A stretch of DNA of 52,745 nucleotides from a virus. The translations under genes were made by a program, and so were the position numbers. Positions 6,284-50,253 of this stretch are shown here, piece by piece. The stretch lies in IMG/VR virus record IMGVR_UViG_3300043184_000117; one strand, given 5' to 3'. A model generated the notes under the pieces. The model was not told the DNA's origin, searched no databases, and saw only the letters and a program-made list of their open reading frames with translations. Within the stretch, counting starts at the first letter, position 1; each line of letters starts with the position of its first letter.

Positions 6284-8356
6284 CTAGTGTTTAGCTTCTT
6301 CGTCAATTAGTTTAGGATTAATGTGGTAGTAGGTTGTGTTTTTTCCATCAACTCTTCCCCGGCAAGGAGATCCTAATAGGTTTACTAATGTGTCACAAAA
6401 TACATGCTTATTAATGCTATATTTATAGCCGTTATTTGAAATCCAAAGAGAAAATTGTTTGTATAAATTATTTCTAGACACTCTTGTAAAAGTTTCATCT
6501 TTTTCTAGGGTTAAGCCCTCTTCTTTAATAAAATGCTCTAGAGGAGTGTGATATTTAAAAGTTTGCTGTTCTTCCTCAAATTCTTTAAATACTGGTTTAA
6601 TAAAAGGCTCAGATTGAGATTCATCAATACTTTGCCACATATTGAGGTAATTTAGTGCGTTAATTTCTTCCCAATCCATCTTATCTAATGTATTTATTTG
6701 AAAAAACCGACGAACAGAGGTGGCGTCTTTAATGACATATTGTAGGTTCAGATTGGATGCGCCTATAAACGTTGAATTGTTATCGCCCACGGCATTACTA
6801 TTTGTGCCTAATCTTCTGTATTGAATTTTTTCAGAAGTTATTTTATTTTTTATGCTTTCTACATCAGCTGTTTCTGCTTTACTCATTTCATCAATAAAAT
6901 ATACAAAATAGTTAATCAAATTAAAAGCTTCTCTAGTGTCTACTAGCTTTTTAAAGTCGCCATCATAATAAACTAGCTCGTGTATAGGATGTAACATTTT
7001 TTTAATTAGTTGAGATTTTCCACTCCCAGATTTGCCTACTAAAACTGGCATATTGTGATAACTTACAGAAATGCCGTAAATTTTACGCTTAACCTGCCAT
7101 AAAAAATGCTTTAAAACGGCAACATGTAAAGTACTATTAGATCCTGTTATTGCTTTTACCAATCTCTCAAAATCAAATTCAGCACTAGGATTAAACGCTA
7201 TATATGATTTTAATTCTTCAAATCGAACTTGTTTTTTGTCAGTACTAAGTTTATTTAAAATAGACGAAATAATTTGAAAACTGATGTTTTTTCCCATAAT
7301 TGTTTGAGAGTAGTTACGTATCTCCTCTAAAACATACTCAATATCTCTTTTGTGCCCGTCTAGATAAAACTGCCCATCAAGGTTAACTGTTAGAAATTTT
7401 TCTGCCATAAAAGTATTAACTATTTCTTGATCAGGAATAGGAGCTAATTTACCATTTTTATCAGTATACCGCATCTTTAGCGGATGCATACTGCCTACCA
7501 TAGATGTATCATAGTTCCAATTTTTATCGGTATAACAATAGCTTATTTGGTACGTATCTTCCTCTGATAAATGCCCAGTAATTTTTCTTATTTTATCTTC
7601 ACACTCCTGCCTAGTAAACCCAGCGGCTTTTAAGTTTTTTACAGCTAAATTCCTATTGGTGTGCCATTCACCGTCGGGCGCACCTGATTGTAAAAATAGC
7701 AAAGTTCGTTTACTGAGTTTTTGTATTTTAGTTTGATCGTCATTGAGGGGGCTTTTAAAAATGGCGGTTTGTGTGGCGCGGTAGTTACTGTTTGTTGGGC
7801 TAATTACTTTTATTCTTTTAACATCTATTTTATTGTGATTAAAAAAGAGCTCTACAGTAGCGGTATTTGAATTAAAAAAAAGATTAGCTGGAGAACAGGT
7901 TTGAGCGTCGTTGTTATTTCTAAAAACGGTAGAAGCTATAAAATTGTAGGTAGCTTTGTACTCTTCTTCAGTAGTTATTAGGGTGCTTGTTGGCATTATT
8001 ACATGAAATTTATCCTCTCCCCAGACTTGGTGGGAATAAGATGTGTATACCGCAAACTCATATCCAGACATGTCTAACTCTACTAAGCAAGAATTTAAAT
8101 CAATCCCACTATCTACATCTAAAACAATAATATTTGTGGATATAAAATTTGCCCTAGCTCTACGACCATCTTTCATTTCTGAGGGAGTAATCGGGACTTC
8201 TGAGGCGCGCTTAGCTACCTCCTCAATAGTTTCAAATTGTTCAGTTTGTCCTTGAATGCAAAACCTACCCCTATCTGCTTTATGAGCTTTTAGTGCCTCT
8301 GGATCTTTAGTTTTAATGTTTAAGGATCCATTAGGATAAGTTGTTATTTTAAACAT
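6284..8356 (-). CDS. Primase-helicase (VirE/BT4734-like N-terminal primase domain plus D5/P4-type P-loop NTPase)
   Basis: RRARANFISTNIIVLDVDS...FAVYTSYSH...KFHVIMP (VirE_N-like); VLVGKSGSGKS Walker A, FIDEM Walker B. Start moved to MFKITTY (RBS AAGGAGA). Confidence 0.8.
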   Translation of the reverse strand: MFKITTYPNGSLNIKTKDPEALKAHKADRGRFCIQGQTEQFETIEEVAKRASEVPITPSEMKDGRRARANFISTNIIVLDVDSGIDLNSCLVELDMSGYEFAVYTSYSHQVWGEDKFHVIMPTSTLITTEEEYKATYNFIASTVFRNNNDAQTCSPANLFFNSNTATVELFFNHNKIDVKRIKVISPTNSNYRATQTAIFKSPLNDDQTKIQKLSKRTLLFLQSGAPDGEWHTNRNLAVKNLKAAGFTRQECEDKIRKITGHLSEEDTYQISYCYTDKNWNYDTSMVGSMHPLKMRYTDKNGKLAPIPDQEIVNTFMAEKFLTVNLDGQFYLDGHKRDIEYVLEEIRNYSQTIMGKNISFQIISSILNKLSTDKKQVRFEELKSYIAFNPSAEFDFERLVKAITGSNSTLHVAVLKHFLWQVKRKIYGISVSYHNMPVLVGKSGSGKSQLIKKMLHPIHELVYYDGDFKKLVDTREAFNLINYFVYFIDEMSKAETADVESIKNKITSEKIQYRRLGTNSNAVGDNNSTFIGASNLNLQYVIKDATSVRRFFQINTLDKMDWEEINALNYLNMWQSIDESQSEPFIKPVFKEFEEEQQTFKYHTPLEHFIKEEGLTLEKDETFTRVSRNNLYKQFSLWISNNGYKYSINKHVFCDTLVNLLGSPCRGRVDGKNTTYYHINPKLIDEEAKH

Positions 8357-8438
8357 AAAATATATCTCCTTGATATGGTTCATACTACTAGATGATTTTT
8401 AGAAAGTAAAGTACTGTAGCATTGGAAATCACCTCAAA

Positions 8439-8581
8439 CAACACTAGAGCAACAAAAAGTAAACAACCTAAACCCTTAAAATTATACGAAAAAAGGTCCT
8501 AAAATATACTGTTGTTGTTTTTTTTGTAAAAACTTAAGGATATATACTATATATAGATTTTTTATTTTTTGTAATATATAA
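8439..8581. repeat. Inverted repeat copy A (143 bp); partner is 43417-43560
   Basis: Base-by-base alignment with the reverse complement of 43417-43560: 2 substitutions and a 1-nt T-run indel. Weaker similarity (~21/32) continues to 8613 vs 43385-43416. No ATG on either strand. Confidence 0.9.
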
Positions 8582-8628
8582 CGGAGTGAGAAGGGAAAAA
8601 TCACCAACAAAATCGTACAATAAAACTA

Positions 8629-8658
8629 TTGACTATGCCAAAAAATTGTGGCATTATA
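8629..8658 (+). promoter_or_regulatory. Sigma-70-like promoter for the plus-strand block
   Basis: TTGACT-N17-CATTAT (or N18-ATTATA), about 30 nt upstream of the RBS AGGAA and ATG 8688. Confidence 0.5.
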
Positions 8659-8687
8659 AAATAAATTAAATTTATTTAGGAACGGAT

Positions 8688-9056
8688 ATGTCACGATCAA
8701 AAAAACACAGAGGATTGTATGCAAATTGCCACTACGATTACAACAAGGAATTTGTTGATATTGATTATATTAATAAACTAACCGATGAAGAAGCGGAATG
8801 GTATAGTAATTTTTTAGACAATTACTACGGTGGTAGATTTAAAAAAGATGACAGTAAAAATCCTATAAAAGACCGAAATGCTTCATATAATGCGGCACAT
8901 GAGCGGCGTAGAGATTTTATGTCAGCTAGGTTTAAATCTAGGATTAAATATTATGAAAATATGCATGAAGGTTTAGAAGCCACTGAACGAGGGATATACA
9001 AAACCACCCAACTCTCAACCCCACCTAAACCATCTCTTTCGGAATCAGATGAATAA
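8688..9056 (+). CDS. Hypothetical protein (122 aa)
   Basis: ORF track; RBS AGGAA. Confidence 0.6.
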   Translation: MSRSKKHRGLYANCHYDYNKEFVDIDYINKLTDEEAEWYSNFLDNYYGGRFKKDDSKNPIKDRNASYNAAHERRRDFMSARFKSRIKYYENMHEGLEATERGIYKTTQLSTPPKPSLSESDE

Positions 9057-9522
9057 CCTACAACTAACCGTATTTGCAGAACCCTTCTCAATTAACAAAG
9101 CTTACTACTTAAAATCATATGGATCTATGTCTGCCACAAAAGTAAGGACTAAGGAATGTAGGGAGTGGGGTGATAAGATATTATTTCAATTTGAAAAATA
9201 TAGTAATGATTTTAAGCAATTTAAAGAATGTTTTAATGAAGATACTGATGCATTGCGCATAGAGTTGACATATAATATACCAAGGGATTATTATTATACA
9301 AAAGAAGGTAAAATTAGTTTGAGGTCTTGTGATTTGACTAATGTAGAAAAGTTGTTGGTTGATATACTATGCGATGAGCGATTTAATGGAAGATATTTAA
9401 ACGGTAATAAAATATTAAATTTAAACATAAATGATAAGTATATTACCGAATTGTTTAGTGAAAAAAAGCCCAGTGATAAGGAGTATAAAATAATTATAAA
9501 AATTATTAAAATACCCAAATAA
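9049..9522 (+). CDS. RusA-like Holliday junction resolvase
   Basis: AEPFSINKAYY (cf. RusA PPSNNRYY) and CDLTNVEKLLVDILCDE (cf. RusA DLDNLQKAAFDAL). Confidence 0.5.
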   Translation: MNNLQLTVFAEPFSINKAYYLKSYGSMSATKVRTKECREWGDKILFQFEKYSNDFKQFKECFNEDTDALRIELTYNIPRDYYYTKEGKISLRSCDLTNVEKLLVDILCDERFNGRYLNGNKILNLNINDKYITELFSEKKPSDKEYKIIIKIIKIPK

Positions 9523-9553
9523 TAACCTTACTAAGTTAGAATAAAGGTGAGAT

Positions 9554-9835
9554 ATGAAATCAGAACTACAAGACGCCCTAGAATCCAGCCAATTGTTAAA
9601 TGAAGCCCTAGACCTTACTCGCGCCCACCTCTCTCAATTATCTCAAAAAGTAAAAGACGGCGAGAGTATTACATCTCAAGATGCGTTTGCTTTATGCTCA
9701 TATATAAAAACCCTTACCGGGTTTGAAAAAGCTAAACGTGAGTTTAAAAAAGACGATAAAAAAGAGATATCACTACTTACAGATGAAGAGCTCCAAGAAG
9801 AATTACGAAAATTGTCTATTAAGGGGGCGGTATGA
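9554..9835 (+). CDS. Hypothetical coiled-coil protein (93 aa)
   Basis: ORF track; RBS AAGGTGAG. Confidence 0.55.
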   Translation: MKSELQDALESSQLLNEALDLTRAHLSQLSQKVKDGESITSQDAFALCSYIKTLTGFEKAKREFKKDDKKEISLLTDEELQEELRKLSIKGAV

Positions 9836-10257
9836 TTGAGTGCATAATCCGTCCTCCAGATATTTCCGACACCGGGTTTATTTTCAATAGCTGGCTAAAA
9901 AGCTACCGCAACTCGGATTTTGCCAAACACCAGTGTAATGCTGTGTATTTTGGATCGTACAAGTTTATTGTTGAAAAAATAATTGAAAAGAGTATGATCT
10001 ATGTGGCATGCGATCCTAAAGATTATACACATGTGTATGGGTATGTAGTTTTTCAAGAACTACCTAAAAATAACCTATTATTACACTACGTATATGTAAA
10101 ACATACCTATAGAAAAATGGGAGTAGCTAAAAAGCTTCTTAAACAAATAGTAAAATCGGAAAACCCAATTCTTGTCACGCACTGGGCTCAATCGTGTAAA
10201 AAAACAGATCAAACAAAATTTATTTACGACCCATACAAAATACAAGGAGCTGTATGA
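9832..10257 (+). CDS. GNAT-family N-acetyltransferase-like protein
   Basis: HYVYVKHTYRKMGVAKKLLKQI resembles the GNAT motif A (R/Q-x-x-G-x-A). Confidence 0.5.
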   Translation: MIECIIRPPDISDTGFIFNSWLKSYRNSDFAKHQCNAVYFGSYKFIVEKIIEKSMIYVACDPKDYTHVYGYVVFQELPKNNLLLHYVYVKHTYRKMGVAKKLLKQIVKSENPILVTHWAQSCKKTDQTKFIYDPYKIQGAV

Positions 10258-10685
10258 TTTTTAAATGCTTAAAATTAGATCAAGAAGCAAGAACGCCCTC
10301 AAAAGCCCACCCTTTAGATAGTGGGTTTGATTTATATACGATTGAGGGGGTGTCACTAAGACCCGGTCAAACTGCGATAGTTAGGACTGGAATTGCTATT
10401 GAACTTCCATATGGGTTTGAAGCCCAAATCAGACCGCGCAGTGGAATTAGTGCCAAATCTGGATTAGTTGTAATGTTAGGAACTATTGATAACCAATATC
10501 GAGGGGAGCTGGGTATTATTGTCAAAAATGTCGGATTTGATTTAGAAGTTATTCCAAAAGGAATGAAACTCGCTCAACTAGTTATTATGCAACTTCCAAT
10601 ATTTGATATGGAATTGGTGGACGAATTAACTCCAGCCAGATCTAGAAATTCCAGCGGATTTGGCTCATCTGGAAACGGGGTTTAG
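10254..10685 (+). CDS. dut: dUTP diphosphatase (trimeric dUTPase)
   Basis: DSGFDLY, IRPRSGISAKSG, GTIDNQYRGELG, SGFGSSG motifs. Confidence 0.9.
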   Translation: MIFKCLKLDQEARTPSKAHPLDSGFDLYTIEGVSLRPGQTAIVRTGIAIELPYGFEAQIRPRSGISAKSGLVVMLGTIDNQYRGELGIIVKNVGFDLEVIPKGMKLAQLVIMQLPIFDMELVDELTPARSRNSSGFGSSGNGV

Positions 10686-10686
10686 T

Positions 10687-10911
10687 ATGGACTTTAAAGA
10701 TTTATTACAAGAGTATTCAAATTTATGTACTCGAATTGGGGATTACACTATACAAATTAATCACCTTTCTAGAAAATTAGATAAAATACAAACAACTGAT
10801 TCTATTATGACAACAGATGACCATAAACAATATTTAAATGCTTTTAATAAACGAAAAGAATTAATTGACGATGCTGAACTTATACTATCAATATTAAGGA
10901 GAGAAGAATGA
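10687..10911 (+). CDS. Hypothetical protein (74 aa)
   Basis: ORF track; start moved to MDFKDLL just after the dut stop. Confidence 0.5.
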   Translation: MDFKDLLQEYSNLCTRIGDYTIQINHLSRKLDKIQTTDSIMTTDDHKQYLNAFNKRKELIDDAELILSILRREE

Positions 10912-11126
10912 ATATCCAAAGAATAAAGTTTTATCTATCAATAAAATGTAGTATTCAAGGCAACGGAAAAACAGAATTTAATTACATAGACACATCCGTC
11001 GATCCTTATATTATTACACTTAAAGATAATTTAGTAAATATAACCCACACATCAACCAATGAGGAAACGTTTACTACACTGAGTAATGTGGTTTACTTTA
11101 CCAAGGTAAATGAAAAATCTAAATAA
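10908..11126 (+). CDS. Hypothetical protein (72 aa) directly upstream of terL (small-terminase position, no motif support)
   Basis: ORF track; overlaps both neighbours by a few nt. Confidence 0.5.
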   Translation: MNIQRIKFYLSIKCSIQGNGKTEFNYIDTSVDPYIITLKDNLVNITHTSTNEETFTTLSNVVYFTKVNEKSK

Positions 11127-13533
11127 AGAGCAAATAAAGTTATATATTGAGGAAGCTAAAAAACGGCTACGGGTGCCGTTTGAAATCAATAATTTTTGCT
11201 TTGACAAGCAATTAAATTTTATTAATGATCCAGCTAGATATAAAACTGCTGTATGTAGTCGTCGATGCTTAGCTGAAAACACCCTAGTTCAAACAACGGA
11301 AGGACCTAAAAAAATTCAGGATATAAAAATTGGAGATTGGGTTTTTGATGAAAACATGAAACCAATTAAAGTTGTTAAAGTGTTTAATAACGGTAAAAAA
11401 GAAGTTGTTGAAGTTTTGCATAATAATAAAATAATGTTTGAAGCCACAACTAACCATGTAATGTTAACCTATCACCCAAGGGCTGGAGGAGTAAAGCAAC
11501 GTCCGCTTAAGAATTTTTATGACGGAGTTAAGATAGTAAGAAATGAAGTAGATCGTAATAATGGCAAAGCTGTAAAATATGCATATGCTATAGGCGCACT
11601 ATTAGGGGATGGGTGTAGTAGAGTAAATTATAAAAGTTATATAACTATATCATCAGAAGATGAAATTATCCCAAATAAAGTTGGTGAATTATTGAATGCA
11701 AGCAGAATCCATAAGTGTCATACAAGTAATTATAATTATTCTATCTACTTAGACAGCATTCCACAAATTTATTTAGATTGGTGTAATACTAGATACGCGC
11801 ATGAGAAAGTATGTGATATTAATGAAATTCTAACGTGGGATAGACCTTCAAGGTTGGCATTTATTGCTGGGCTAATTGATACCGATGGATCAGTGTGCAA
11901 CGCAGCTGACGGCATTCAAATTGATATTAGCATGCAAGCAAAATCAGTTATTGAAGCAGCCCAACTATTATTTCTAGACTTATGGCAATTTAGCCCATCT
12001 ATTTTAGTTGATAGTAGACCTAAATATAAAAACGGTCCCGTATATGTGTTAAGATTTAAACATAATTACTTTGGTAAAAAAATACTTAAAGATTTAGATC
12101 CATATCTCATGACACTACGTAAAAAATGGAAAAGCGAGTATGAGTTTAAATTAGAAAATAATTATAATTCTAAATACGTAGGAGTAGTGTTTGGAAAAAC
12201 CTCAATAAAGCATACTTACGATATCCATGTCGACTCACCATCAAATTTATACATGTTAGCTAATGGATTAATTACTCACAATTCTGGTAAATCTGTAAGT
12301 TGCGCCGCACATCTTGTATCTCAATGCACATCTAAAAAAAATCAAAAATGCTTATATATAACATTAACTCGCGGTACTGCTAAAAAAATTGTATGGAAAG
12401 AGATAAATGAGATTATAAAACTACATAATTTAAACGTTGAAACTAATGGCACTGACCTAACAATGACGTTCCTAGACACAAACTCAATTATATATTTTTC
12501 TGGAGCTAGTAAAAAAGACGAAGTTGAAAAGTTTCGAGGCTTATCATTAAACCTAGTGTATATTGATGAGGTGCAATCATTTAAACCTTTTATAAAAGAG
12601 TTAATTGATGAAGTATTGGCTTACACCGTTTTGGATACCGCCGGCACCATTGCTTTAATTGGAACGCCTGGACCAATACCAGGCGGGTTTTTTTACGAGA
12701 CTTCCCACTCGATAGGCTGGAGCAACCACAAATGGACTGTATTTGATAATCCCCATATTAAACTTAAAACAGGATTAGAACCTGAAGAATTATTAAGGCA
12801 AGAGCGCGAGCGTCGTGGTATTAGTGAAAACGATCCTGCCTACTTACGAGAGGCTCTTGGAATGTGGATTCAAGATTCTGACTCGTTAGTATTTAAATAC
12901 AACCCTAGTATTAACAACTACGATAAATTACCAGATGAGGAATTGGTTCATATTTTTGGAGTAGACTTAGGATATAATGATTCTGATGCAATAGCAGTAT
13001 TAGGCTACTCACGCATTCAAAAAAAAGTATTTTTAGTTGAAGAATGGGTCAAGGATAAGCAGGGTATTACCGAACTTGCTGAACAAATTAAACTGATGAT
13101 CAACAAGTATAAGCCCGTCAAAATAAAGATCGATGCTGGTGCTTTAGGTAAGAAGATTAGTGAAGAATTAATTAGGCGTCATCAAATTCCAGTAGAAGCA
13201 TCTGACAAACACAGAAAATTAGAGTATATTGAGTTTATGAACGACGACCTCCGTACTGGCAAATTTTTAATAAAATCTAACAGTATTACTGCACACGATG
13301 CAATGCTTATGACCTGGGATATACGAACTAAAGATAAACGCACGGTATCCGATCAATTTCACTCCGATATACTTGATGCGGTTTTATATGCTCACCGTGA
13401 GGCAAAACATTATTTTGCCGAAGCTCCAATAAAAGTATACAAATCTGATGAAGTTAAAGTTAACGAGTTTTGGGAAAAAGAAGCCCAGGAATTAGAGCAA
13501 AAAAAATTGAAAGCGGAATGGTGGGATCAGTGA
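11110..13533 (+). CDS. terL: Terminase large subunit, interrupted by an intein (468-aa extein plus 339-aa intein)
   Basis: The spliced junction restores the Walker A SRR|SGKS (cf. T4 gp17 SRQLGKT). LVYIDEV Walker B, ALIGTPG coupling motif, C-terminal nuclease-like FGVDLGY...D. Confidence 0.9.
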   Translation: MKNLNKEQIKLYIEEAKKRLRVPFEINNFCFDKQLNFINDPARYKTAVCSRRCLAENTLVQTTEGPKKIQDIKIGDWVFDENMKPIKVVKVFNNGKKEVVEVLHNNKIMFEATTNHVMLTYHPRAGGVKQRPLKNFYDGVKIVRNEVDRNNGKAVKYAYAIGALLGDGCSRVNYKSYITISSEDEIIPNKVGELLNASRIHKCHTSNYNYSIYLDSIPQIYLDWCNTRYAHEKVCDINEILTWDRPSRLAFIAGLIDTDGSVCNAADGIQIDISMQAKSVIEAAQLLFLDLWQFSPSILVDSRPKYKNGPVYVLRFKHNYFGKKILKDLDPYLMTLRKKWKSEYEFKLENNYNSKYVGVVFGKTSIKHTYDIHVDSPSNLYMLANGLITHNSGKSVSCAAHLVSQCTSKKNQKCLYITLTRGTAKKIVWKEINEIIKLHNLNVETNGTDLTMTFLDTNSIIYFSGASKKDEVEKFRGLSLNLVYIDEVQSFKPFIKELIDEVLAYTVLDTAGTIALIGTPGPIPGGFFYETSHSIGWSNHKWTVFDNPHIKLKTGLEPEELLRQERERRGISENDPAYLREALGMWIQDSDSLVFKYNPSINNYDKLPDEELVHIFGVDLGYNDSDAIAVLGYSRIQKKVFLVEEWVKDKQGITELAEQIKLMINKYKPVKIKIDAGALGKKISEELIRRHQIPVEASDKHRKLEYIEFMNDDLRTGKFLIKSNSITAHDAMLMTWDIRTKDKRTVSDQFHSDILDAVLYAHREAKHYFAEAPIKVYKSDEVKVNEFWEKEAQELEQKKLKAEWWDQ
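11266..12282 (+). mobile_element. Class 1 intein with LAGLIDADG homing endonuclease, inserted in the TerL P-loop
   Basis: Starts with Cys (CLAENTLV, block A); TTNHVM (block B TxxH); two dodecapeptide motifs IGALLGDGCS and IAGLIDTDGS; ends ..GLITHN followed by Ser (+1). Confidence 0.88.
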
Positions 13534-13763
13534 TTAAGTATCAATGGGATAAAGTCCCAAGAGAATTGGTTGATTTGGAAATACCCCTTGATCTTATGAT
13601 TAAGGTTAGTGAGTTCGTGCATTTTGCCGCATCCAGAAAGCACAGTGCATATGAAAAACACGTTATCGACGATCTAGATATTATCCTCAATTCTGGGAAC
13701 TTGCCAGATGTTAACAAAAAGTATATTATATATTTTTTAACGGAGCTAAGACCTATTCAATAA
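13518..13763 (+). CDS. Hypothetical protein (81 aa)
   Basis: ORF track; start moved to MVGSVIK, overlapping the terL stop. Confidence 0.5.
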
Positions 13764-13777
13764 CTAAAGGACTCAGC

Positions 13778-14410
13778 ATGAATGTAGAATTAGTTTCTAT
13801 ATCTAAGCCTTTAAACGACATGACCCCTGAACAGTTTATAGCTTACGTAGCAAGAGTTTCTAACCCTTCAAATCAATTAAATATAGAAACTGCGCCAAAA
13901 TTATTAAAATATTGCATGGATCACGGACATTGGTCTATATTTGAAACAGTTACCTGCACATTTGAAATTAAAACTAGTAGGGCAATTGCCGCACAAATAC
14001 TCAGACACCGATCCTTTACTTTTCAAGAATTTAGCCAAAGGTATGCATCGGTTGCAGAGTTTGAAACCTACAACGCTAGACGCCAAGATACCAAAAATCG
14101 TCAAAACAGCATTGATGATTTACCTCAAGACACTAAAGAGTGGTTTATTTACGCGCAGAAACAAGTATCTGATAGTGCTTACGAATTGTATGTGCAAGCA
14201 TTGAGTAAGGGAGTTGCTAAGGAGCAGGCGCGATTTTTGCTCCCACTTAGCACCCAAACCAAGCTGTACATGACAGGCTCAATACGTAGCTGGATTCACT
14301 ATCTCAATGTGCGTACAACTTCTGATACGCAATTAGAGCATAGAGAAATTGCAATTGAAATTAAGGAAAAATTAAAATTACATTTTCCTAATATTTTTAA
14401 TAATTTATAG
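13778..14410 (+). CDS. thyX: Flavin-dependent thymidylate synthase ThyX
   Basis: ThyX signature [14 protein letters not shown] (RHRxxSxxxxSxR); size 210 aa. Confidence 0.9.
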
Positions 14411-14418
14411 CTCTAAAG

Positions 14419-14481
14419 TTGTACCCGCTAAGGTATAAATATTTATTTTTTTATTTTTTTGTACCTGAAAGGGTATAAATA
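14419..14481 (+). repeat. Two copies (40-bp period) of TTGTACC-N6-GGTATAAATA small hairpin units after thyX
   Basis: ttgtacccgctaaggtataaata and ttgtacctgaaagggtataaata; each can form a UACC/GGUA stem; the first is followed by a T-rich run. Confidence 0.6.
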
Positions 14482-14503
14482 ATGTACATCTTAAAATATA
14501 TAA

Positions 14504-14532
14504 TTGTTAAAAAAGTAAAATTATGATACTAT
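14504..14532 (+). promoter_or_regulatory. Sigma-70-like promoter upstream of the lysis cassette
   Basis: TTGTTA-N17-TACTAT. Confidence 0.4.
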
Positions 14533-14550
14533 ATATAATATGGGGAAATT

Positions 14551-14745
14551 ATGAAAAAAAGTGAAGTAGTAGACTACATAGTAAAAAATGGAAGATGTCA
14601 GATTTCTGAAATTCAAGCAGAAGATGTTTTACGTTTAATTGATGAATTAGGATTTCTTCCGCCAAGAACACAGTTAAATAAATTAAAACTACAAGATAAT
14701 GGATACGATGTTGAGGAGGAACTTTATGGCAGTCGTAAGTTATAA
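14551..14745 (+). CDS. Hypothetical protein (64 aa)
   Basis: ORF track. Confidence 0.5.
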   Translation: MKKSEVVDYIVKNGRCQISEIQAEDVLRLIDELGFLPPRTQLNKLKLQDNGYDVEEELYGSRKL

Positions 14746-15109
14746 AAAAGGATCTAAAACAAAGTTGTCCGATCATTTTAACTCTTCTGAATTTGATTGT
14801 AATTGTACTAATTGTGATACTACTTTGATTGATAGCGAGTTAGTAGAAATGCTAGAGGATTTGCGATCAGAAGTTAATGCGCCAATAAAAATTCATTCTG
14901 GATATAGGTGCGAAAATCATAACCGCGCCATCGGTGGAGCTCAAAATTCAACCCACACTGCCGGCAAAGCAGTTGATATAAGTATAAAAAATTTAGATTT
15001 GTTATATAAAGAAGCTTGTGAGCATTTTTATGCTGTAGGTGATGGTAGAAATAAAGGATTTATACACGTCGACACTCGGTCCGATAAAACCAGACGTTGG
15101 AATTATTAG
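14726..15109 (+). CDS. Endolysin, zinc peptidase M15 (D-Ala-D-Ala carboxypeptidase-like)
   Basis: HSGYRCENHNRAIGGAQNSTHTAGKAVDI...GFIHVD (H-x6-D...H zinc ligand pattern). Start moved to MAVVSYK (RBS GGAGGA). Confidence 0.8.
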   Translation: MAVVSYKKGSKTKLSDHFNSSEFDCNCTNCDTTLIDSELVEMLEDLRSEVNAPIKIHSGYRCENHNRAIGGAQNSTHTAGKAVDISIKNLDLLYKEACEHFYAVGDGRNKGFIHVDTRSDKTRRWNY

Positions 15110-15117
15110 GAGCAATT

Positions 15118-15327
15118 ATGAAGCTAATTATTATAATGGCGTTTTTAGTCTCATGCGCAAATATGAGACATAAATCTATATTTGATGAACCAGTTCCAGA
15201 ATTGACAAGAAGAGAAAAAGAAAGGCGCTCTTTTATTTTATGTGTTCAGAGATTTTGGGATGCAGGGATGACTGCCGAGGATGCAAAAGAAGTTTGTACT
15301 AATTCAATGGCGTTTCCCGAAAGATAA
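15118..15327 (+). CDS. Small lipoprotein next to the endolysin (o-spanin-like)
   Basis: MKLIIIMAFLVSC lipobox (LVSC); RBS AGGAG; position immediately after the endolysin. Confidence 0.55.
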   Translation: MKLIIIMAFLVSCANMRHKSIFDEPVPELTRREKERRSFILCVQRFWDAGMTAEDAKEVCTNSMAFPER

Positions 15328-15795
15328 TACTTTTACCAACTCAGTGGGTGCTTTCATACTAAAATCTTTATTGAGTAACTTGCCTATTACTTCACAACAA
15401 AAATATCTAGAGGGTTTATTAAACTTATTTTTTTCAGGTATAGCCATAAAAAATAATTTAAATAATATAATTCTATAAGCAAAATATAATATGCCTTCGT
15501 AATCATATCTTTTATTTTTTAAATTTTTAAAATGATTTTTTAGTTCTTTATAACATATAGATTGATAAAATGGGATACATTTTATTTGCTCATTTATAGT
15601 TAACCACTTGTTGTACGAAATAATACGTACGCCACTAGTTAGAGTAGATTCAAATACCCAGCGTTTATTGACTAATATTGCCACATGCGAGGGCGTAGGA
15701 ACTTGTGTTTGATTTAAGGATTGAGTAGACCAACTTATCAATTTGCTGCCAATCTTATTGTTGCGACTAAATAAGAAATGGAGTTGTACTTTCAT
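15304..15795 (-). CDS. Permuted papain-fold (NlpC/P60-YiiX-like) hydrolase candidate
   Basis: His-before-Cys order: PSHVAILV ... RYFCCEVI; last gene of the minus-strand block. Confidence 0.35.
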   Translation of the reverse strand: MKVQLHFLFSRNNKIGSKLISWSTQSLNQTQVPTPSHVAILVNKRWVFESTLTSGVRIISYNKWLTINEQIKCIPFYQSICYKELKNHFKNLKNKRYDYEGILYFAYRIILFKLFFMAIPEKNKFNKPSRYFCCEVIGKLLNKDFSMKAPTELVKVLSFGKRH

Positions 15796-16214: not shown

Positions 16215-17408
16215 TTATAAATCCCTAATACATGATCCACCAGCACCACCACCGCCCCCAGTAATACCAACGTTAGCACTCCCAGCTACACCAGCAGCAC
16301 CTACAGTAGTATTACCAATTTTAGTTAATGTTTCGTGAATTCTTATTCGTCCACCTGTACCACCACCGCCACCTGAACCTCCAAGTCCGGTACCATTACC
16401 ATTACCACCATTACCGCCCATACCGCCTGAAGCATTTATTAACCCAGTTATTGTTGGACCAGAAAGAGTTTCATAAAATATAATTATGTATCCACCACCT
16501 CCACCGGCTCCACCTCCTCCACCCCCAACGTTTCCAACTGACCCAGAAGCGCCGTTTCCTCCCATACCACCTCTTGAAGTAATACAACTTGCTGGGGTAG
16601 ATACAGATTTAGTAATAGTTCTAGCCCAAATACCTATAATTCCTCCACCAGCACCGCCGCCACCACCGCCTCGTCCTGTGTTAGTTCCATCACCACCACC
16701 TGACGAACCACCAGGTCCACCAGCACCTGCTTGAATAAGAGAAACTCCCCTAATAATATCATAAGTAAATCTTGCAAAATCTGTAGGAATTGTTGCTGTA
16801 GCTGCGGATCTTGATATACCACCTGCACTAACACCTGTACCGCCTGCACCACCTGCACCAGATGATCCTCCGTTTGATGGAGTTGTTGCTGTAGTGGCAG
16901 CGGCTTGTGCTCCAGAACCTGTAACCCCAGTACCTCCTGTTCCACCAGCTGTGTTAGCACCAAGTGTTTGAGCTGTATATGCAGCAGACCCAGCAACGCC
17001 TGTTGCAGCCGTGGCGTTGGATCCATTAAGAGCGCTTAGAGTAATAGCGTTAACTCCTGCATTAGATAAATTTAAATTATTTTTTACAAATATTCTGTAA
17101 CCATTTGTACGAATTTGAGCTGAACCGGTTAATGTTAAGTTATTGTAGTACATATCACTAGTTAAAGTAGTAGTACCTGAACTTAACGTAACATCACCAT
17201 CTTCTCCATTACCAAAATCTTGTATGGAGTTAGTTTGTGCTGGTCCTGCTATACCGCCGTATGGTAATAAATTCCAAGTTTGAGTCCCATTACCAATTTT
17301 AAATTGAGATGTGTTTGTTTCTATTCCTATTTCGCCCTGCGCTAAAATAGGGTTAACCGTTGACCAGTTAGTTGAAGTATCCCGTCTTAATTGTATTTGA
17401 ACAGCCAT
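16215..17408 (-). CDS. Glycine-rich tail fibre/receptor-binding protein
   Basis: Conserved fibre N-terminus MAVQIQLRRDTSTNW...GEIGIETNT..FKIGNG; long GGxGG tracts ending GGGGYIIIFYE. Confidence 0.65.
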   Translation of the reverse strand: MAVQIQLRRDTSTNWSTVNPILAQGEIGIETNTSQFKIGNGTQTWNLLPYGGIAGPAQTNSIQDFGNGEDGDVTLSSGTTTLTSDMYYNNLTLTGSAQIRTNGYRIFVKNNLNLSNAGVNAITLSALNGSNATAATGVAGSAAYTAQTLGANTAGGTGGTGVTGSGAQAAATTATTPSNGGSSGAGGAGGTGVSAGGISRSAATATIPTDFARFTYDIIRGVSLIQAGAGGPGGSSGGGDGTNTGRGGGGGGAGGGIIGIWARTITKSVSTPASCITSRGGMGGNGASGSVGNVGGGGGGAGGGGGYIIIFYETLSGPTITGLINASGGMGGNGGNGNGTGLGGSGGGGGTGGRIRIHETLTKIGNTTVGAAGVAGSANVGITGGGGGAGGSCIRDL

Positions 17409-19313: not shown

Positions 19314-21608
19314 TTAATAGTAGTATTCTGTTACTATGATATAACCTGATCCACCGGCTCCACCAGCAAGTCCTGAAGTACCTGCAGTCCCTGCTGCACC
19401 AGCAGCTCCAATAGCATAAGAATATGTTGTAGCTGGATTGTTAATTATTGCATCAACATATCCACCGGCTCCACCACCCGATCCACAAAATGAACTGGCA
19501 ACAGTTCCAGCCGATCCTCCACCACCTCCAGAACCAGAATTGGCTATTGCGGCTGAACCAGCACCGTCATATCTCCAAGAACCCTGACCGCCAAACGGAG
19601 AAGAAGCTCCGGTACCAGCAGGTAATCTTATCGCGTTTACCGCAGTGTTTGGATTAACACTTCCTCCAGAACCAACGCCACCTTGAATTGATGTACCAAT
19701 AGGACCAGTACCTAGAGATGCAGCACCGCCTGTTCCACCTGTACCAGCACTAAAAGCTCCTCCACCGCCGCCATTAGCTACAAGAAGGGATGATCCAAAT
19801 GTAGTATCTCCACCAGCTCCTCCATTACCTCCAGCTGCTGTACCAGATCCACCACCACCGCCTCCACCGCCAACCATTTTAACATTGATATAACGGACTC
19901 CAGCAGGTCTTGTATAAGTCCCAGACCCTGAAGTAAACTTTTGAATTGTGGGTAATTGAGGGATGTTTAGTCCAGTTAGGGATGGGTTACGTGAGGCGTT
20001 GATAACTAAATAACCATTTGATGTACTAGTAAGATCTGTGTATCCTAAAAATTTAGTAGTAGTAGTAGTATTTAAATTATATCCAACATCTACAGTTAAA
20101 ATTCCTGTAACTTCATTATACGACTTATAGTATGCACCAGCTTCAGTTGTTGATGATAGTATAATATTGTCTAATTCACCTGATGTAACTTTACCTAAAG
20201 ATTTGTATAAATCTAAAGTTACGCCTTTCATCCCTTTACCAATTTGAATAGCAACTACAGCTGGTTGCGCCGCTGTACTTGCAGCATTATATGCACGGGT
20301 AAATAATTGTATACCATTAACATTCATGCTAGCAGTAGTTTGAGTAGGTGCAGTAGTAGTTTGAGTGCGTGTATTACTAGTAGATGCATATGTAAACGTA
20401 ATAAATGTACCAATTGGTGCATCTGCCAAAGTTGTTAAAGTATACGTTGCTGATCCAGCGTAAACAAGTGAGGCAGTGTCGGTGCTGAATGATTCTGATT
20501 GGGTTACAATTGATGGAACCGTAGCTACTAGACCTGCGCACGGAACTGAAGCAAAAAATGAAAAAGTAGACCCTGCTCCTAATAGTGCACTACCGTTTAG
20601 CTTTGTCAATCCTCCAGTTGCACCATCTTGTCTTCCAAACGTTAAGTAAGTAACAGAAGGTTCAATTAGAGAAGTAACAGAAGCGGCTACAGCACCACTA
20701 AAAGCGCCACTACCCACTACTTGTAAACTAGGAATTATACTTGTGTTTGCAGAAGTTAATGCTGATGGAAGGCTAATACGCGCTTCAGTAGCAGTAGGTG
20801 TTCCAGCAACAAATTTACCCCTAATGTCAACATTTTGCCCACTTTGACGCCACTGAAACTCAATTGCTGTTGCTGTTCCAAATCCTGTAAAAGTTGGAGT
20901 ATAACTAGCCCAAGGTGAATCGTTATCTAAATCAGCATAAACCGTAGCATCACTAGTCAATACAATATCATCAAAATTTAAAATCTTACCACTATTCAAT
21001 ATCTTAGTTTGAAACCCTATACGAATTGATGCACAAGTTGCTGGAATACTAATATTTACTCGATATAGTCCTGTTGTTTGAATCGGAACAGGTACTAATG
21101 AATTAGCTGGCAAAGTTAATTTTTGAGAATTAGTCACATCCCAGACTACAAATTCCATGTCTGAGTTTCCGCCATCATATTGATAATTGAAAAATACAGT
21201 GGCAATGTTGCCGCGAAATTTTACCGGAATCGGCTGTGCCGCACTTGCAATATAATCATTCAATGACCCGGCAGCCTGTGTATATCGGTAATTGGCTACA
21301 CCATTAAGAGGTGAGCTTGTGTTTTTTACGAAGGTTCCGGCTAATGCGCCTCCACCTAAAAATGTCGCGTTGTTACCATTGGACCAATCACTCAATGATT
21401 CATTAGCTACAAGTTGAAAAGCTACGTCTAAGCCTCCACTTGATGCTCCAACTTGTTGCCAACTGCCTTGAATATATTGCCATAGCCCACGTGTACGGGA
21501 TGTACCGTCGGCATAAAATAACATCCCCTCAACTGGCACTGCTGGATCGGCAGATTGAGCGCGGGTTGTAACGTTAGAAAATTTAGGTTGATTTCCAATA
21601 AAACTCAT
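19314..21608 (-). CDS. Tail fibre with C-terminal glycine-rich domain
   Basis: 764 aa; C-terminus FTSGSGTYTRPAGVRYINVKMVGGGGGGGGSG...GGAGGSGYIIVTEYYY, typical of phage glycine-rich fibre domains. Confidence 0.7.
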   Translation of the reverse strand: MSFIGNQPKFSNVTTRAQSADPAVPVEGMLFYADGTSRTRGLWQYIQGSWQQVGASSGGLDVAFQLVANESLSDWSNGNNATFLGGGALAGTFVKNTSSPLNGVANYRYTQAAGSLNDYIASAAQPIPVKFRGNIATVFFNYQYDGGNSDMEFVVWDVTNSQKLTLPANSLVPVPIQTTGLYRVNISIPATCASIRIGFQTKILNSGKILNFDDIVLTSDATVYADLDNDSPWASYTPTFTGFGTATAIEFQWRQSGQNVDIRGKFVAGTPTATEARISLPSALTSANTSIIPSLQVVGSGAFSGAVAASVTSLIEPSVTYLTFGRQDGATGGLTKLNGSALLGAGSTFSFFASVPCAGLVATVPSIVTQSESFSTDTASLVYAGSATYTLTTLADAPIGTFITFTYASTSNTRTQTTTAPTQTTASMNVNGIQLFTRAYNAASTAAQPAVVAIQIGKGMKGVTLDLYKSLGKVTSGELDNIILSSTTEAGAYYKSYNEVTGILTVDVGYNLNTTTTTKFLGYTDLTSTSNGYLVINASRNPSLTGLNIPQLPTIQKFTSGSGTYTRPAGVRYINVKMVGGGGGGGGSGTAAGGNGGAGGDTTFGSSLLVANGGGGGAFSAGTGGTGGAASLGTGPIGTSIQGGVGSGGSVNPNTAVNAIRLPAGTGASSPFGGQGSWRYDGAGSAAIANSGSGGGGGSAGTVASSFCGSGGGAGGYVDAIINNPATTYSYAIGAAGAAGTAGTSGLAGGAGGSGYIIVTEYYY

Positions 21609-39151: not shown

Positions 39152-39159
39152 CTGGGCAA
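39152..39159 (-). promoter_or_regulatory. TTGCCCAG motif (with AATAAT 17 nt downstream)
   Basis: Minus strand reads TTTTTGCCCAGACTTCTTAACTAACTAATAAT; about 65 nt upstream of the scaffold ATG. Confidence 0.4.
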
Positions 39160-39238
39160 AAATACATATATAATTCTTTAAAAATTATGCAAAAGTACAT
39201 ATATAATTGCTTAAAAATTATGCAAAAATACATATATA
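39156..39238. repeat. 33-bp tandem repeat, 2.5 copies
   Basis: gcaaaaatacatatataattctttaaaaattat / gcaaaagtacatatataattgcttaaaaattat / gcaaaaatacatatata. Confidence 0.9.
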
Positions 39239-39246
39239 GTTTTTCT

Positions 39247-39306
39247 GTGTAAACAAAAAGAAAGATATGTAAAGTTGTGTAAACAAAAAGAAAGATATGT
39301 AAAGTT
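39247..39306. repeat. 30-bp tandem repeat, 2 exact copies
   Basis: gtgtaaacaaaaagaaagatatgtaaagtt x2. Confidence 0.9.
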
Positions 39307-42779: not shown

Positions 42780-42995
42780 TTACTTAGTAGTTAAGTCTTC
42801 CTTAATATCTAACCCATCCAGGTACATTCGCATGCAAAACATGCCCCACTCCAACGAACCTACTAAACTGGCATCATAGTGTAATGCAAACGCCTCAACC
42901 AACACATCTTGGTTGCGCTGTACATAATTGATAAAGGCTGGCGTGGTGCCTAGATCGACCGTGATTTTGCGTAAGCGAGCGGGCGAATGTTTCAT
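42780..42995 (-). CDS. Hypothetical protein (71 aa)
   Basis: ORF track. Confidence 0.55.
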   Translation of the reverse strand: MKHSPARLRKITVDLGTTPAFINYVQRNQDVLVEAFALHYDASLVGSLEWGMFCMRMYLDGLDIKEDLTTK

Positions 42996-43180
42996 ACTAT
43001 GCCTTTAATTAAAAAACTAGGCGACGTTGTGCGCCACCTAGCCACAAAAAGGAGTAGGGGGTCGTCATCCCCTAAATTTATTTTACTACAAACCCACATT
43101 GAAGTCAACAAAACGGTGCCGTTGGCGTAACTATTTAATTTTATTATACGCCCATCTAAACTCTCCTCTAAATGTAGCAT
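42992..43180 (-). CDS. Hypothetical protein (62 aa), first ORF after the non-coding hub
   Basis: ORF track. Confidence 0.5.
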   Translation of the reverse strand: MLHLEESLDGRIIKLNSYANGTVLLTSMWVCSKINLGDDDPLLLFVARWRTTSPSFLIKGIV

Positions 43181-43416
43181 AATTTGCTTTTACCTGGTAG
43201 TGCCGATTATTTTAAACCACACCATGAACATCGTAAAATCAACTACAATGCATTTCACTGCCAACCCCAACCTAACCTACCCACCGCCAATACTGGAGAG
43301 TTTAAGGCGGTACTTTGTTTGAATTAGGGGTATCAATGGGGGTGGTGATCGTACACCGCGGAATGGTAAAATTGATAGGTATTTATTGTGTGGTTGATTT
43401 CGCCCTGACCAACCCA
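43181..43416 (-). other. GC-enriched non-coding leader with C-rich/G-rich arms around an ACCGCC...GGCGGT hairpin
   Basis: ccaaccccaacctaacctacccaccgcc (43261-43288), hairpin 43283-43311, then ggggtatcaatgggggtggtg (43327-43347); no ORF longer than 13 codons on either strand. Confidence 0.5.
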
Positions 43417-43560
43417 TTATATATTACAAAAAATAAAAAATCTATATATAGTATATATCCTTAAGTTTTTACAAAAAAAAACAACAACAGTATATTTTAG
43501 GACCTTTTTTTGTATAATTTCAAGGGTTTAGGTTGTTTACTTTTTGTTGCTCTAGTGTTG
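43417..43560. repeat. Inverted repeat copy B (144 bp); partner is 8439-8581
   Basis: See copy A. The orientation points the same end of the element at the downstream operon in both places. Confidence 0.9.
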
Positions 43561-43727
43561 CATTAATAGCTTTTTGTGCAAATTTGTTCCTTTTTGTAAC
43601 CGCCTGAAATTACACACCACTACCATAATATCAATAAGTTGCACCACTAGATTTGCCAATACCTGTTTGATATGTCTAACAAAAGTTTGAGTAGAGAGAC
43701 ACCCTCAATGGGGTCATTGGTTGCATT

Positions 43728-43743
43728 TGCAAGATTGGTGCCA
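43728..43743 (-). promoter_or_regulatory. Sigma-54 (RpoN) type promoter, perfect consensus TGGCAC-CAATC-TTGCA
   Basis: Forward tgcaa-gattg-gtgcca; exact -24 GG / -12 GC spacing. Confidence 0.6.
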
Positions 43744-43757
43744 CATTTCATGTACGC

Positions 43758-43773
43758 TGCAAAACTGGTGCCA
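43758..43773 (-). promoter_or_regulatory. Sigma-54 (RpoN) type promoter, perfect consensus TGGCAC-CAGTT-TTGCA
   Basis: Forward tgcaa-aactg-gtgcca. Confidence 0.6.
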
Positions 43774-43790
43774 TTATGACACTACACCAT

Positions 43791-43806
43791 TGGCACCATT
43801 ATTGCA
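43791..43806 (+). promoter_or_regulatory. Sigma-54 (RpoN) type promoter, perfect consensus TGGCAC-CATTA-TTGCA, pointing antisense to the early genes
   Basis: Read directly on the plus strand. Confidence 0.55.
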
Positions 43807-43859
43807 TGTAAAAATACGGGGGCTGTTTTTATTGATGAAGGCTAAAAAACCGGGGGTGG

Positions 43860-44635: not shown

Positions 44636-44971
44636 TTATTCGTGTAGATTGAGGTAGATGTCATGGACCCAATGCGCCCACAAATGCCAACACTTACCAT
44701 TGATTTCCGCCATCACTTCTTCCATTTGAGCTTCTGTCAACTCTGCCGAACTTGTATTCATTTGAAAATACACCACGTGGGTCAACTCGTGTGCTACATC
44801 AGCGTGGTCCATATCGTTCATTATAAACGTAACTACCTTTGGCTTAAACTCGGTTATAGCAGCACTGTCGGATCCATAAAGTTTGCAATATTTGGCGCGC
44901 GGCAACGTCCTAAACGTCCACTCCTCATTCAATATCTTACGCTTTATTTCTTTCACACAATCTCCCATCAT
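44636..44971 (-). CDS. Mini zinc-metallopeptidase-like protein (HExxH)
   Basis: DVAHELTHVVYF contains HELTH; 111 aa. Confidence 0.45.
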   Translation of the reverse strand: MMGDCVKEIKRKILNEEWTFRTLPRAKYCKLYGSDSAAITEFKPKVVTFIMNDMDHADVAHELTHVVYFQMNTSSAELTEAQMEEVMAEINGKCWHLWAHWVHDIYLNLHE

Positions 44972-45008
44972 AATGTAATTTCAAATACTTAACAATGGTT
45001 TCACTTAT

Positions 45009-45051
45009 TATATTGCACCAAAAAAAGCATTATTGCACTATATTGCACCAA
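45009..45051. repeat. 13-bp direct repeat TATATTGCACCAA x2 plus a partial ATTGCAC between them (10/20-bp phasing)
   Basis: 45009-45021 and 45039-45051 are identical; ATTGCAC at 45013, 45033 and 45043. Confidence 0.8.
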
Positions 45052-45373
45052 TTAATTCAATGTGAGGCATTAGCTCATTCATAAACTCTTCCTGGTCTAC
45101 TACCGACACTGTCAACTCGGTCTCGTCCGGGTGCACCGCCGTAATTACAATAAGTTTTGCAATCGGCATGTAGCCCAACTCAATTATCTCGCCCGATTCT
45201 TTTATAACCGCCACCATGTTCGGATTCTCATCTGGCACCATATTTGTCTCCTCTATTGCGTCGTAGTTTAGTTCTTCCGCAAGTGTAATATTGCGCATGT
45301 GGTTTCTTGCCCAGGGCGCTTCAGGTACGTCTATTTCAAGGTTAGGGTATTGAATGATCATTTGGTTATCCAT
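45038..45373 (-). CDS. Very acidic early protein (111 aa)
   Basis: ORF track; D/E-rich throughout. Confidence 0.6.
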   Translation of the reverse strand: MDNQMIIQYPNLEIDVPEAPWARNHMRNITLAEELNYDAIEETNMVPDENPNMVAVIKESGEIIELGYMPIAKLIVITAVHPDETELTVSVVDQEEFMNELMPHIELIGAI

Positions 45374-46888: not shown

Positions 46889-47134
46889 CTAATACTCCCC
46901 AAACAAATTTAATCCTCTCTCATTAGCTTCAGAATTGAGTAAATCCCTAATATCTTGCAGATGCCGTACTGTTTCTTCGCTTAAATCTGCGGCGTATTTT
47001 ATTTTTGATCTCAATGCTTGATCCACTGTCTCAAGGACAATATGGGCATCCGACCCTTTAATTGCCATATTAAAATCTTGCCGTTGATCCGGGTCTAATA
47101 AATCAAAGTGCATAGTAATTTTTCTACTTGTCAT
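46889..47134 (-). CDS. Hypothetical protein (81 aa)
   Basis: ORF track; start moved to MTSRKIT (RBS AAGGAGA). Confidence 0.55.
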   Translation of the reverse strand: MTSRKITMHFDLLDPDQRQDFNMAIKGSDAHIVLETVDQALRSKIKYAADLSEETVRHLQDIRDLLNSEANERGLNLFGEY

Positions 47135-47159
47135 AAATTTTTCTCCTTTGGAATTTTTT

Positions 47160-47885: not shown

Positions 47886-47898
47886 AACAATCTCCTTA

Positions 47899-48192
47899 CT
47901 AAACAAATATATCGTTTATTTCTTTTTTTACTAATTGTTGATACTTTTCAGAAGCAAATCTAAAAATAGTTTTTCTTTGCTCTAAACTCAAATCAATATC
48001 CATAGTTTTATATTTTACCGTATATTCGTCGTAGATTAAATTATCTTGAGATATATATGATTTATAAGTAATAAAAATAACATTTTCAATAACAAAACTA
48101 GTTTCATTTTTCGTAACTTTTTTTTCAAACAAATCTAAATTGTCTTGATTATTGATGTAAATCTTTAATTTTTTCATATAATCCATATACAC
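47899..48192 (-). CDS. Hypothetical protein (97 aa)
   Basis: ORF track. Confidence 0.55.
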   Translation of the reverse strand: MYMDYMKKLKIYINNQDNLDLFEKKVTKNETSFVIENVIFITYKSYISQDNLIYDEYTVKYKTMDIDLSLEQRKTIFRFASEKYQQLVKKEINDIFV

Positions 48193-50051: not shown

Positions 50052-50064
50052 TTTATTCCTACGG

Positions 50065-50253
50065 TTATTTGTTGTTATTAAAAATAATTTTTGTTGGAGT
50101 TTCGATTTTTTCGATTTCTTCTTTTTTTGCATCACATTTTTGACAATTAAAAACCGTAGTATGAAGTAATAGTATAGGTTTCCATACATGGTAACATTTT
50201 GATTCGTAGTAAGCGTCAGTATTTACCCAATAAGAATCCATACCATAATCCAT
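50065..50253 (-). CDS. Hypothetical Cys-containing protein (62 aa)
   Basis: ORF track; RBS GGAGGAA. Confidence 0.55.
   Translation of the reverse strand: MDYGMDSYWVNTDAYYESKCYHVWKPILLLHTTVFNCQKCDAKKEEIEKIETPTKIIFNNNK

Follow-up and report, generated by a model that had tools for sequence, protein, structure and literature searches.

Inverted copies of an intergenic element upstream of two operons of an uncultured phage, most likely a paired cis-acting module under concerted evolution

The window analysed here, which is the whole 52,745-nucleotide stretch of IMG/VR virus record IMGVR_UViG_3300043184_000117, carries two near-identical copies of a 143-bp AT-rich, non-coding element in inverted orientation, one upstream of each of two operons and each with the same end toward its operon. 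The favoured reading, given a rough probability of 0.45, is that the two copies are a paired cis-acting promoter or protein-binding module that has been homogenised by intragenomic gene conversion. We infer both the promoter or regulator-binding function and the role of gene conversion from comparison with a small set of related phages. The system is of interest but most likely belongs to a known type, that of paired intergenic sites which act in cis and evolve in concert.

The ends of the window are identical over 127 bp (1-127 and 52619-52745), which indicates a circular assembly (k = 127) and a complete genome of 52,618 bp. Gene calls and family searches place the repeat in a four-part setting made up of a replication arm, a plus-strand block, a virion block and the two gaps that bear the copies. 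The replication arm lies on the minus strand and runs leftward from a VapE/DUF5906 helicase-primase via a PDDEXK nuclease and a DNA polymerase, across the window ends to a ribonucleotide reductase (48201-50189) and on to 43860. The true start of the helicase-primase is the ATG at 8356, which has AAGGAG just before it and agrees with a database protein of 690 aa as well as with the homologues' consensus MFKITTYPNG; the mechanical ORF list had placed it at 8383. The plus-strand block (8688-15478) encodes a 122-aa ORF, a RusA-like protein, an acetyltransferase, a dUTPase, a TerL with a LAGLIDADG insertion, ThyX and an endolysin. The minus-strand virion block, from 15304 to about 42995, contains SU10-type portal, capsid and adaptor genes.

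Copy A is located in the 331-bp divergent region (8357-8687; region A) between the helicase-primase start and the 122-aa ORF, and copy B in a non-coding gap of ~860 bp (42996-43859), below which the first credible ORF of the virion block begins at 42995. A listed ORF at 42992-43180 is probably not a gene, because it has no homologue and overlaps a promoter-like site and two hairpins. The initial annotation had described the repeat as standing in front of "both late operons". There are indeed two operons, but the plus-strand block is mixed in content, from RusA, acetyltransferase and dUTPase to TerL, ThyX and endolysin, and each operon has a proximal promoter of its own.

Direct reading of the sequence, a repeat finder and global alignment agree that the core of copy A (8439-8581, plus strand) equals that of copy B (43560-43417, minus strand) except at three places. 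Two are substitutions (8478 A versus 43521 G, and 8488 G versus 43511 A), and the third is a difference in run length, T8 in copy A and T9 in copy B. The two cores are ~98% identical, with exact runs of 39, 9, 29 and 64 bp in the global alignment, and alignment of the copies with their flanks gives the near-identical tract sharp edges. Beyond the core, on the operon side, a degenerate tail continues for ~32 bp, to about 8613 and 43385 respectively, with 17 of 27 aligned columns (63%) identical. Local alignment of the two intergenic regions gave z = 48, a score that none of 300 composition-matched shuffles reached. With 22% G+C, the core includes tracts of T and of A, and neither strand contains an ATG. 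The inverted repeat with its two substitutions and one run-length difference, the degenerate similarity, the common geometry toward the operons and the absence of ATG had all been noted in the initial annotation and are borne out here, save that the second substitution lies at 8488 and not at 8489. The parts of the repeat are as follows.

8439..8581, plus strand: core of copy A, 143 bp, flanked by the divergent promoter region of the helicase-primase on one side and by the RusA-TerL-lysis operon promoter on the other
8582..8613, plus strand: degenerate extension of copy A, ~63% identical to copy B and orthologous to region A of the sister lineages
43417..43560, minus strand: core of copy B, 144 bp with the T9 run, within the non-coding gap of ~860 bp that precedes the virion block
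43385..43416, minus strand: degenerate extension of copy B, from the repeat finder and the alignment
8518..8533, strand not applicable: T8-G-T-A5 near-palindrome, the sole block that this element shares with those of the sister lineages (there T6-A-T-A5/6)

The halves of the near-palindrome give -35-like hexamers, one in each direction. At the position equivalent to the extension of copy A, the sister lineages keep CGGAGTGA / CGGACTGA.

A consensus scan found promoter-like hexamer pairs, matching at 8-10 of 12 positions, in both directions in every copy of the element. One rightward pair reads TTGTAA-N18-TATATA, and a TATAA(C/T) stands at the extreme edge of the core. The candidate signals in and around the two copies are these.

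8503..8530, minus strand: best promoter-like match in copy A, TTTACA-N16-TATATT (10/12), directed toward the helicase-primase; a consensus match only
43468-43496, plus strand: twin of that match in copy B, with spacer N17
8408..8437, minus strand: tentative helicase-primase promoter, TTGAGG-N18-TACTTT (8/12, a weak match), abutting the left edge of copy A
8629..8657, plus strand: TTGACT-N17-CATTAT preceded by TG, the sigma-70-type promoter proximal to the plus-strand operon, its position kept in all relatives examined
43080..43108, minus strand: TTGACT-N17-TAAAAT, the sigma-70-type promoter proximal to the virion block, 309 bp beyond copy B on the operon side
43015..43043, minus strand: terminator-like hairpin, a 12-bp stem followed by T6, between the virion promoter and the ORF at 42995

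The promoter-like hexamers to which attention had been drawn are thus present, but their count is not clearly above chance: 8 matches were observed against 4.8 +/- 2.3 in shuffles, an enrichment that is not significant in such AT-rich DNA. No -35/-10 pair was found conserved at aligned positions across lineages. The proximal promoters stand at unequal distances from the element, 48 bp from copy A and 309 bp from copy B, and a role as a fixed-distance upstream activator of both operons is therefore impossible. Two minus-strand hairpins at 43015-43074, one of them canonical and terminator-like, follow the proximal virion-block promoter and precede the first virion ORF; such hairpins ahead of the virion genes suggest control by attenuation or antitermination. 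No terminator-like site was found in 8000-9000.

A profile search found exactly two copies of the element in the window. BLAST of the element against phage records gave no match, and exact 23-26-mers from either half of the core were absent from viral, metagenome and genome contigs, where the metagenome k-mer result covers relatives only. The phage, present in run SRR13020431, is carried by only one sample, and the element is private to its lineage. A MITE- or IS-like mobile element was considered and rejected, as the aligned flanks show neither terminal inverted repeats nor a target-site duplication, and copies elsewhere were absent from the phage records and contig collections searched. Among cultured phages, neither the portal nor the major capsid protein had a tblastn match, and the hits of the helicase were just 23-27% identical.

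Relatives were recruited through homologues of the helicase-primase and the portal, and their contigs fall into three groups (D, J and S). The helicase-primase alone brought no further relative from viral contigs and a helicase-primase profile brought one, while searching with the 122-aa first gene contributed no relatives other than ones whose intergenic region is short. Group D, with helicases 47-50% and portals about 71% identical to those of the window, comprises the loci L003/L019, L004/L011 (one 50.4-kb contig), L005, L006, L014 and L018, the last by portal and synteny only. L003/L019 is a complete circular genome of 47,376 bp with identical 127-bp ends (k = 127). The loci L015-L017 resemble group D: their region A is short, L016 has a D-type helicase of 681 aa, and the first-gene product shares 63% identity with that of the window. 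Group J consists of L002, whose helicase is 74% identical to that of the window. Group S consists of L012/L013 (region A) and L007-L009 (virion side), with a helicase 74% and a portal 82% identical to those of the window and two sequencing runs in common. The sources of the sister lineages are runs ERR8576885/6 and the JGI samples 3300063078 and 3300063111. The S and J helicases are 82% identical to each other.

In group D, region A measures only 71-159 bp between helicase and first gene and holds back-to-back canonical promoters. The element profile found no copies in this group, and its regions A and B have nothing convincing in common (z <= 3.3 in the same orientation). Here a single strand carries TerL, an ORF homologous to that at 44636-44971, a non-coding gap of 0.6-1 kb, small ORFs and the portal. 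This co-directional order of TerL and portal is probably ancestral, because it is seen in the genomes of L003/L019, L004/L011, L005, L014 and L018. Relative to these five, the block of the window from 15304 to about 45400, which includes the virion genes, the gap and two ORFs (44636-45373), is inverted in place. The breakpoints lie near 15.3-15.5 kb and 45.4-46.3 kb, away from the repeat, and an independent k = 31 contig (L001, from 8552 to about 39275) covers the junction of the plus-strand and virion blocks. It is this block inversion in the window's lineage that makes the two copies an inverted instead of a direct repeat.

Ahead of the virion block, the gap of each relative has lineage-specific iteron-like repeats and a (TA)n-rich stretch. 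The gap in L018 (1984-2880) holds ACGTGAAAACGC-type repeats and that in L011 (2577-2634) holds AATCTAAC three times, while the gap in L008 holds TTTGG(C/T)ATACCTAACAA three times and AAAAAATAGT twice (1990-2080, 2162-2182). By their motif content, these gaps appear to have an origin-like or complex regulatory architecture.

The same gap also carries sigma-54-type motifs. In the window they form one cluster.

43728..43805, both strands: upstream of copy B, three perfect motifs of the form TGGCAC-N5-TTGCA (sigma-54-type), of which two are directed toward the virion block and one away from it

Perfect motifs of this type number four in 52.7 kb, three of which lie within 80 bp upstream of copy B; sites elsewhere in the window are listed at 41721 and 32276. 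Every relative whose equivalent gap was recovered has at least one such motif in it (L008 1702-1934; L011 2155; L003 558; L018 2048; L019 635 and 847). Around one of the sites, a block of ~40 bp shows ~85% conservation between window and sister phage, a higher value than that of the repeat element. No gene for an enhancer-binding protein, regulator, sigma factor or RNA polymerase was recognisable among the phage ORFs scanned.

The phage of group S, an apparent sister phage (Logan runs ERR8576885/6), has its own AT-rich element of 110-113 bp at both sites, in region A (L012 4747-5099; L012/L013) and in the virion-side gap (L008 1614-2656; L008/L009), oriented as in the window. The two S copies are 77% identical (E = 1e-17, z = 17.9-18.6), with a longest exact stretch of at most 15 bases, where L012 and L008 are taken as one genome from their shared runs and matching divergence, the contigs themselves not overlapping. 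Region A of J is homologous to both S copies (z = 12.4). Over the aligned core, S copy A is 79% identical to S copy B and 59% identical to J copy A, and J copy A is 68% identical to S copy B. A profile built from the five known copies recovers two in the window and, in every J and S locus, one where it is expected.

The core of the window has no detectable similarity to the J and S elements, with z about 0 for its 5' 74 bp and 1.4-2.0 for its AT-rich half; the 5' 74 bp have no counterpart at either site of any relative. What the window core and the J and S elements have in common is a T6-(A/G)-T-A5 block and their base composition. The adjoining flank (8582-8687), with CGGAGTGA and the proximal promoter in it, is clearly an orthologue of region A in J (L002; z = 6.4). 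Paralogous copies are thus alike within genomes while orthologous copies are unlike between lineages, a pattern that points to concerted evolution, by repeated exchange between the two sites or by co-evolution with one reader. The sharp-edged 143-bp tract of the window would be its most recent episode. Of the explanations put forward in the initial annotation, gene conversion together with a shared regulatory cassette is the one best backed by these comparative data. Related genomes yielded an apparent sister phage with its own pair at the same two sites, although the sequence there is different and the more distant relatives are without a pair.

Two further observations bear on function. The best-conserved stretch of the S pair contains a TATAAT-type box followed by ACTACAGAG, and ATATAATACTA recurs in the short region A of L015/L016, where a TTGAC-type promoter is absent; together these favour a real promoter within the J and S element. 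The 10-mer AAAAA[AG]TAG[CT] is confined to the two regions in the J and S lineages (4/4, 4/4 and 2/2 occurrences), which suggests a site-specific binding protein.

According to the favoured reading, the copies would be paralogues of an AT-rich non-coding control module, each upstream of one morphogenesis-related operon and directed at it. The AT-rich part may be an old feature of the long non-coding gap before the virion block, and in the small clade of the window a second copy lies between the back-to-back promoters of the helicase-primase and the RusA-TerL-lysis operon. Through promoter-like and factor-binding sequences, the module would supply one common regulatory input to the two operons in addition to their proximal promoters. 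The 98% identity over exactly 143 bp would then reflect a recent intragenomic gene conversion or copy-paste event rather than functional constraint, probably aided by the phage's own recombination genes (PDDEXK nuclease, RusA). A regulatory role is preferred because promoter repeats are common in phages, the -10-like stretch is conserved and group D has no copy in region A. Several points weigh against it: the promoter-like matches are not significantly above shuffles, the distances to the two proximal promoters are unequal, no regulator gene was recognised among the ORFs scanned, both operons already have conserved proximal promoters, distant relatives manage without a copy in region A, and iteron-like repeats with AT-rich DNA beside a primase-helicase gene would suit an origin equally well.

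Among described repeats, the PeSL cassettes (promoter-early stem-loops) of the T4-type phages RB49 and phi1 appear to be the closest analogue, though the stem-loop and the copy number of those cassettes are not matched. PeSL cassettes occur ~50 times per genome, flank ORFans and combine strong consensus sigma-70 boxes with a G/C-rich stem-loop terminator (PMC2839356; PMC4122927). Like them, the present element is a repeated, AT-rich intergenic cassette of ~100 bp with promoter-like boxes directly upstream of genes, and its homology is sufficient for exchange between copies by phage recombination. Unlike them, it occurs in two copies, lacks a G/C stem-loop and a strong consensus promoter, and has two large core operons downstream.

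Several of the same features would also be expected of paired origin-type sites, the main rival to the favoured reading though rather unlikely. DNA would then unwind in the AT-rich core, and short motifs would bind an initiator, either the VapE/D5-type helicase-primase or some other protein. Copy A stands right beside the gene for the helicase-primase, with copy B 35 kb off, the core is poor in G+C with T and A tracts, and the virion-side gap of the relatives combines 0.6-1 kb of non-coding DNA with repeated motifs of its own and an AT-rich stretch. If one protein had to recognise both sites, they would be expected to co-evolve inside each genome, as observed, and the operons' own promoters make an extra promoter not obviously needed. 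In the Bacillus phage SPP1 (oriL/oriR) and the satellite phage P4 (ori/crr), one origin site likewise lies by the initiator gene and a second far away. The likeness extends to two homologous, distant cis sites, to AT-rich DNA with candidate short repeated motifs at each site, and to sites that would have to match if one protein reads both; binding and origin activity are demonstrated for SPP1 and P4 and would be predictions for the present sites. An iteron-like motif restricted to these regions is available in the J and S 10-mer. In the window core only AACAAC is repeated, four times, and the signal is weak, the 6-mer occurring 53 times genome-wide. The distant relatives, with helicase-primases 47-50% identical, also differ from SPP1 and P4 in lacking an initiator-proximal copy, their region A of just 71-159 bp being without the element. 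GC skew follows gene orientation and adds no independent origin signal, and paired origins are rare among phages while repeated promoter regions are common. A transcribed element, that is a leader, an sRNA or a nut/put-like antitermination RNA that starts both operons, is highly improbable. Its orientation relative to transcription is equal at both sites, as in lambda nutL/nutR and HK022 putL/putR, which are also paired cis elements in the same orientation to two operons and inverted in the genome. Transcription through the element could start from the sigma-54-type motifs that lie before copy B, and a terminator-like hairpin precedes the virion genes. However, nut and put sites are transcribed RNA stem-loops downstream of promoters, whereas the element lies upstream of the proximal promoters and has neither a conserved structure nor an Rfam match. 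Rfam gave nothing over the whole window at gathering thresholds and only noise (E about 0.6-0.7) for the two regions at E = 1, fold energies were no better than those of shuffles (z = -0.81 and +0.14), and RNAalifold on the five copies found no consensus structure. The leader or sRNA suggested in the initial annotation is, as a structured RNA, not supported. In region A no upstream promoter able to drive transcription across the entire element was found, the 82 bp from the helicase-primase start holding only the tentative promoter that faces the opposite way. A hairpin seen by eye in the sister phage (CTACAGA / TCTGTAG) was rejected, as its pairing is out of register in the other copies.

The repeat could also act through recombination. 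Inversion of the 34.8-kb segment 8582-43416 would be geometrically coherent, and both isomers look viable because each operon would carry its own proximal promoter. It is improbable that this is a working device in which phage recombination flips the segment during replication, to give isomers or, by double rolling circle, packaging concatemers, with the identity of the arms under selection. More improbable still is a selected recombination substrate in which homologous recombination between the arms yields two isomers or a switch from theta to rolling-circle replication; the Futcher model for the yeast 2-micron plasmid reportedly proposes that recombination converts one mode to the other. The exact run of 64 bp within 143 bp at 98% identity would be ample for phage recombination systems, and the phage encodes both a PDDEXK nuclease and a RusA-like resolvase. 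For T4, a homology requirement of <50 bp is cited in the PeSL study (PMC2839356). Identity of the arms with free choice of sequence is the outcome expected of selection for recombination. As in the Mu G and P1 C segments (Gin/Cin), plastid genomes, herpes simplex virus and the 2-micron flip-flop, inverted repeats bracket a large segment, and gene order would stay coherent after a flip. Unlike in those systems, the arms are 143 bp long instead of 26-34-bp crossover sites and come with no recombinase gene found, and the segment makes up two thirds of the genome and has a single assembled orientation. Site-specific recombinases were sought among the window ORFs scanned (PHROGs, Pfam) and in the precomputed Pfam lists of syntenic relatives, and none was found. 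The S copies, 77% identical, share at most 15 exact bases; arm identity is therefore not a conserved requirement and inversion is unlikely to be the conserved function. The sole inversion seen between lineages, which affects the virion block, breaks at places other than the repeat. Only one orientation was assembled, and the copies differ enough for an unambiguous assembly at k = 127, while k = 31 contigs break inside the repeat. Given the short exact matches in S and the lack of a recombinase among the genes scanned, inversion is more likely an occasional by-product than a selected function. It is quite unlikely, finally, that the repeat has no function of its own and is a neutral patch of recent conversion or duplication in a fast-evolving spacer, or an assembly artefact. 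The 5' 74 bp without detectable counterpart in relatives, the sharp edges and the single sample that carries the phage would suit this explanation, but an equivalent pair at the same two sites of the sister phage is hard to account for without constraint or recurrent exchange. An assembly artefact is unlikely because the copies differ at three positions and a second assembler reproduces the flanks; that assembler (k = 31) breaks where the graph predicts, 30 bases inside the shared 64-mer.

If the paired control module is real, one control signal would act over two separated morphogenesis operons and would have been kept after a large block inversion, and the pair would be a clean, small case of concerted evolution in viral non-coding DNA. 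The pair marks a candidate promoter or origin region of an uncultured lineage without a cultured relative. The genome may exist as two isomers, which bears on its assembly and on comparisons of gene order.

Other repeats and insertions were observed elsewhere in the genome. TerL (11110-13533) is 807 aa long and contains a LAGLIDADG_3 homing-endonuclease-like insertion (30 bits, residues about 237-330), which looks like an intein-type element. The TerL of the L002 lineage also has the insertion (805 aa), and those of phage S and the distant relatives are 461-473 aa long. In the gap between the portal and the next gene, tandem duplications at 39156-39305 comprise 33 bp present twice and 30 bp present twice, the second pair being exact, and the k = 31 contig ends there. 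At 47106-47828, inside the ORF at 47160-47906, ~8 tandem units of 63 bp are 64-78% identical to the reference copy, which indicates a protein made of 21-residue repeats. Gly-rich repeat families (CCACCACC, plus strand) lie at 16226-16667 and 19331-19478, inside two genes (16215-17408 and 19314-21608) in the part of the virion block where the tail genes are; a protein with a Pfam collagen domain is found in relatives.
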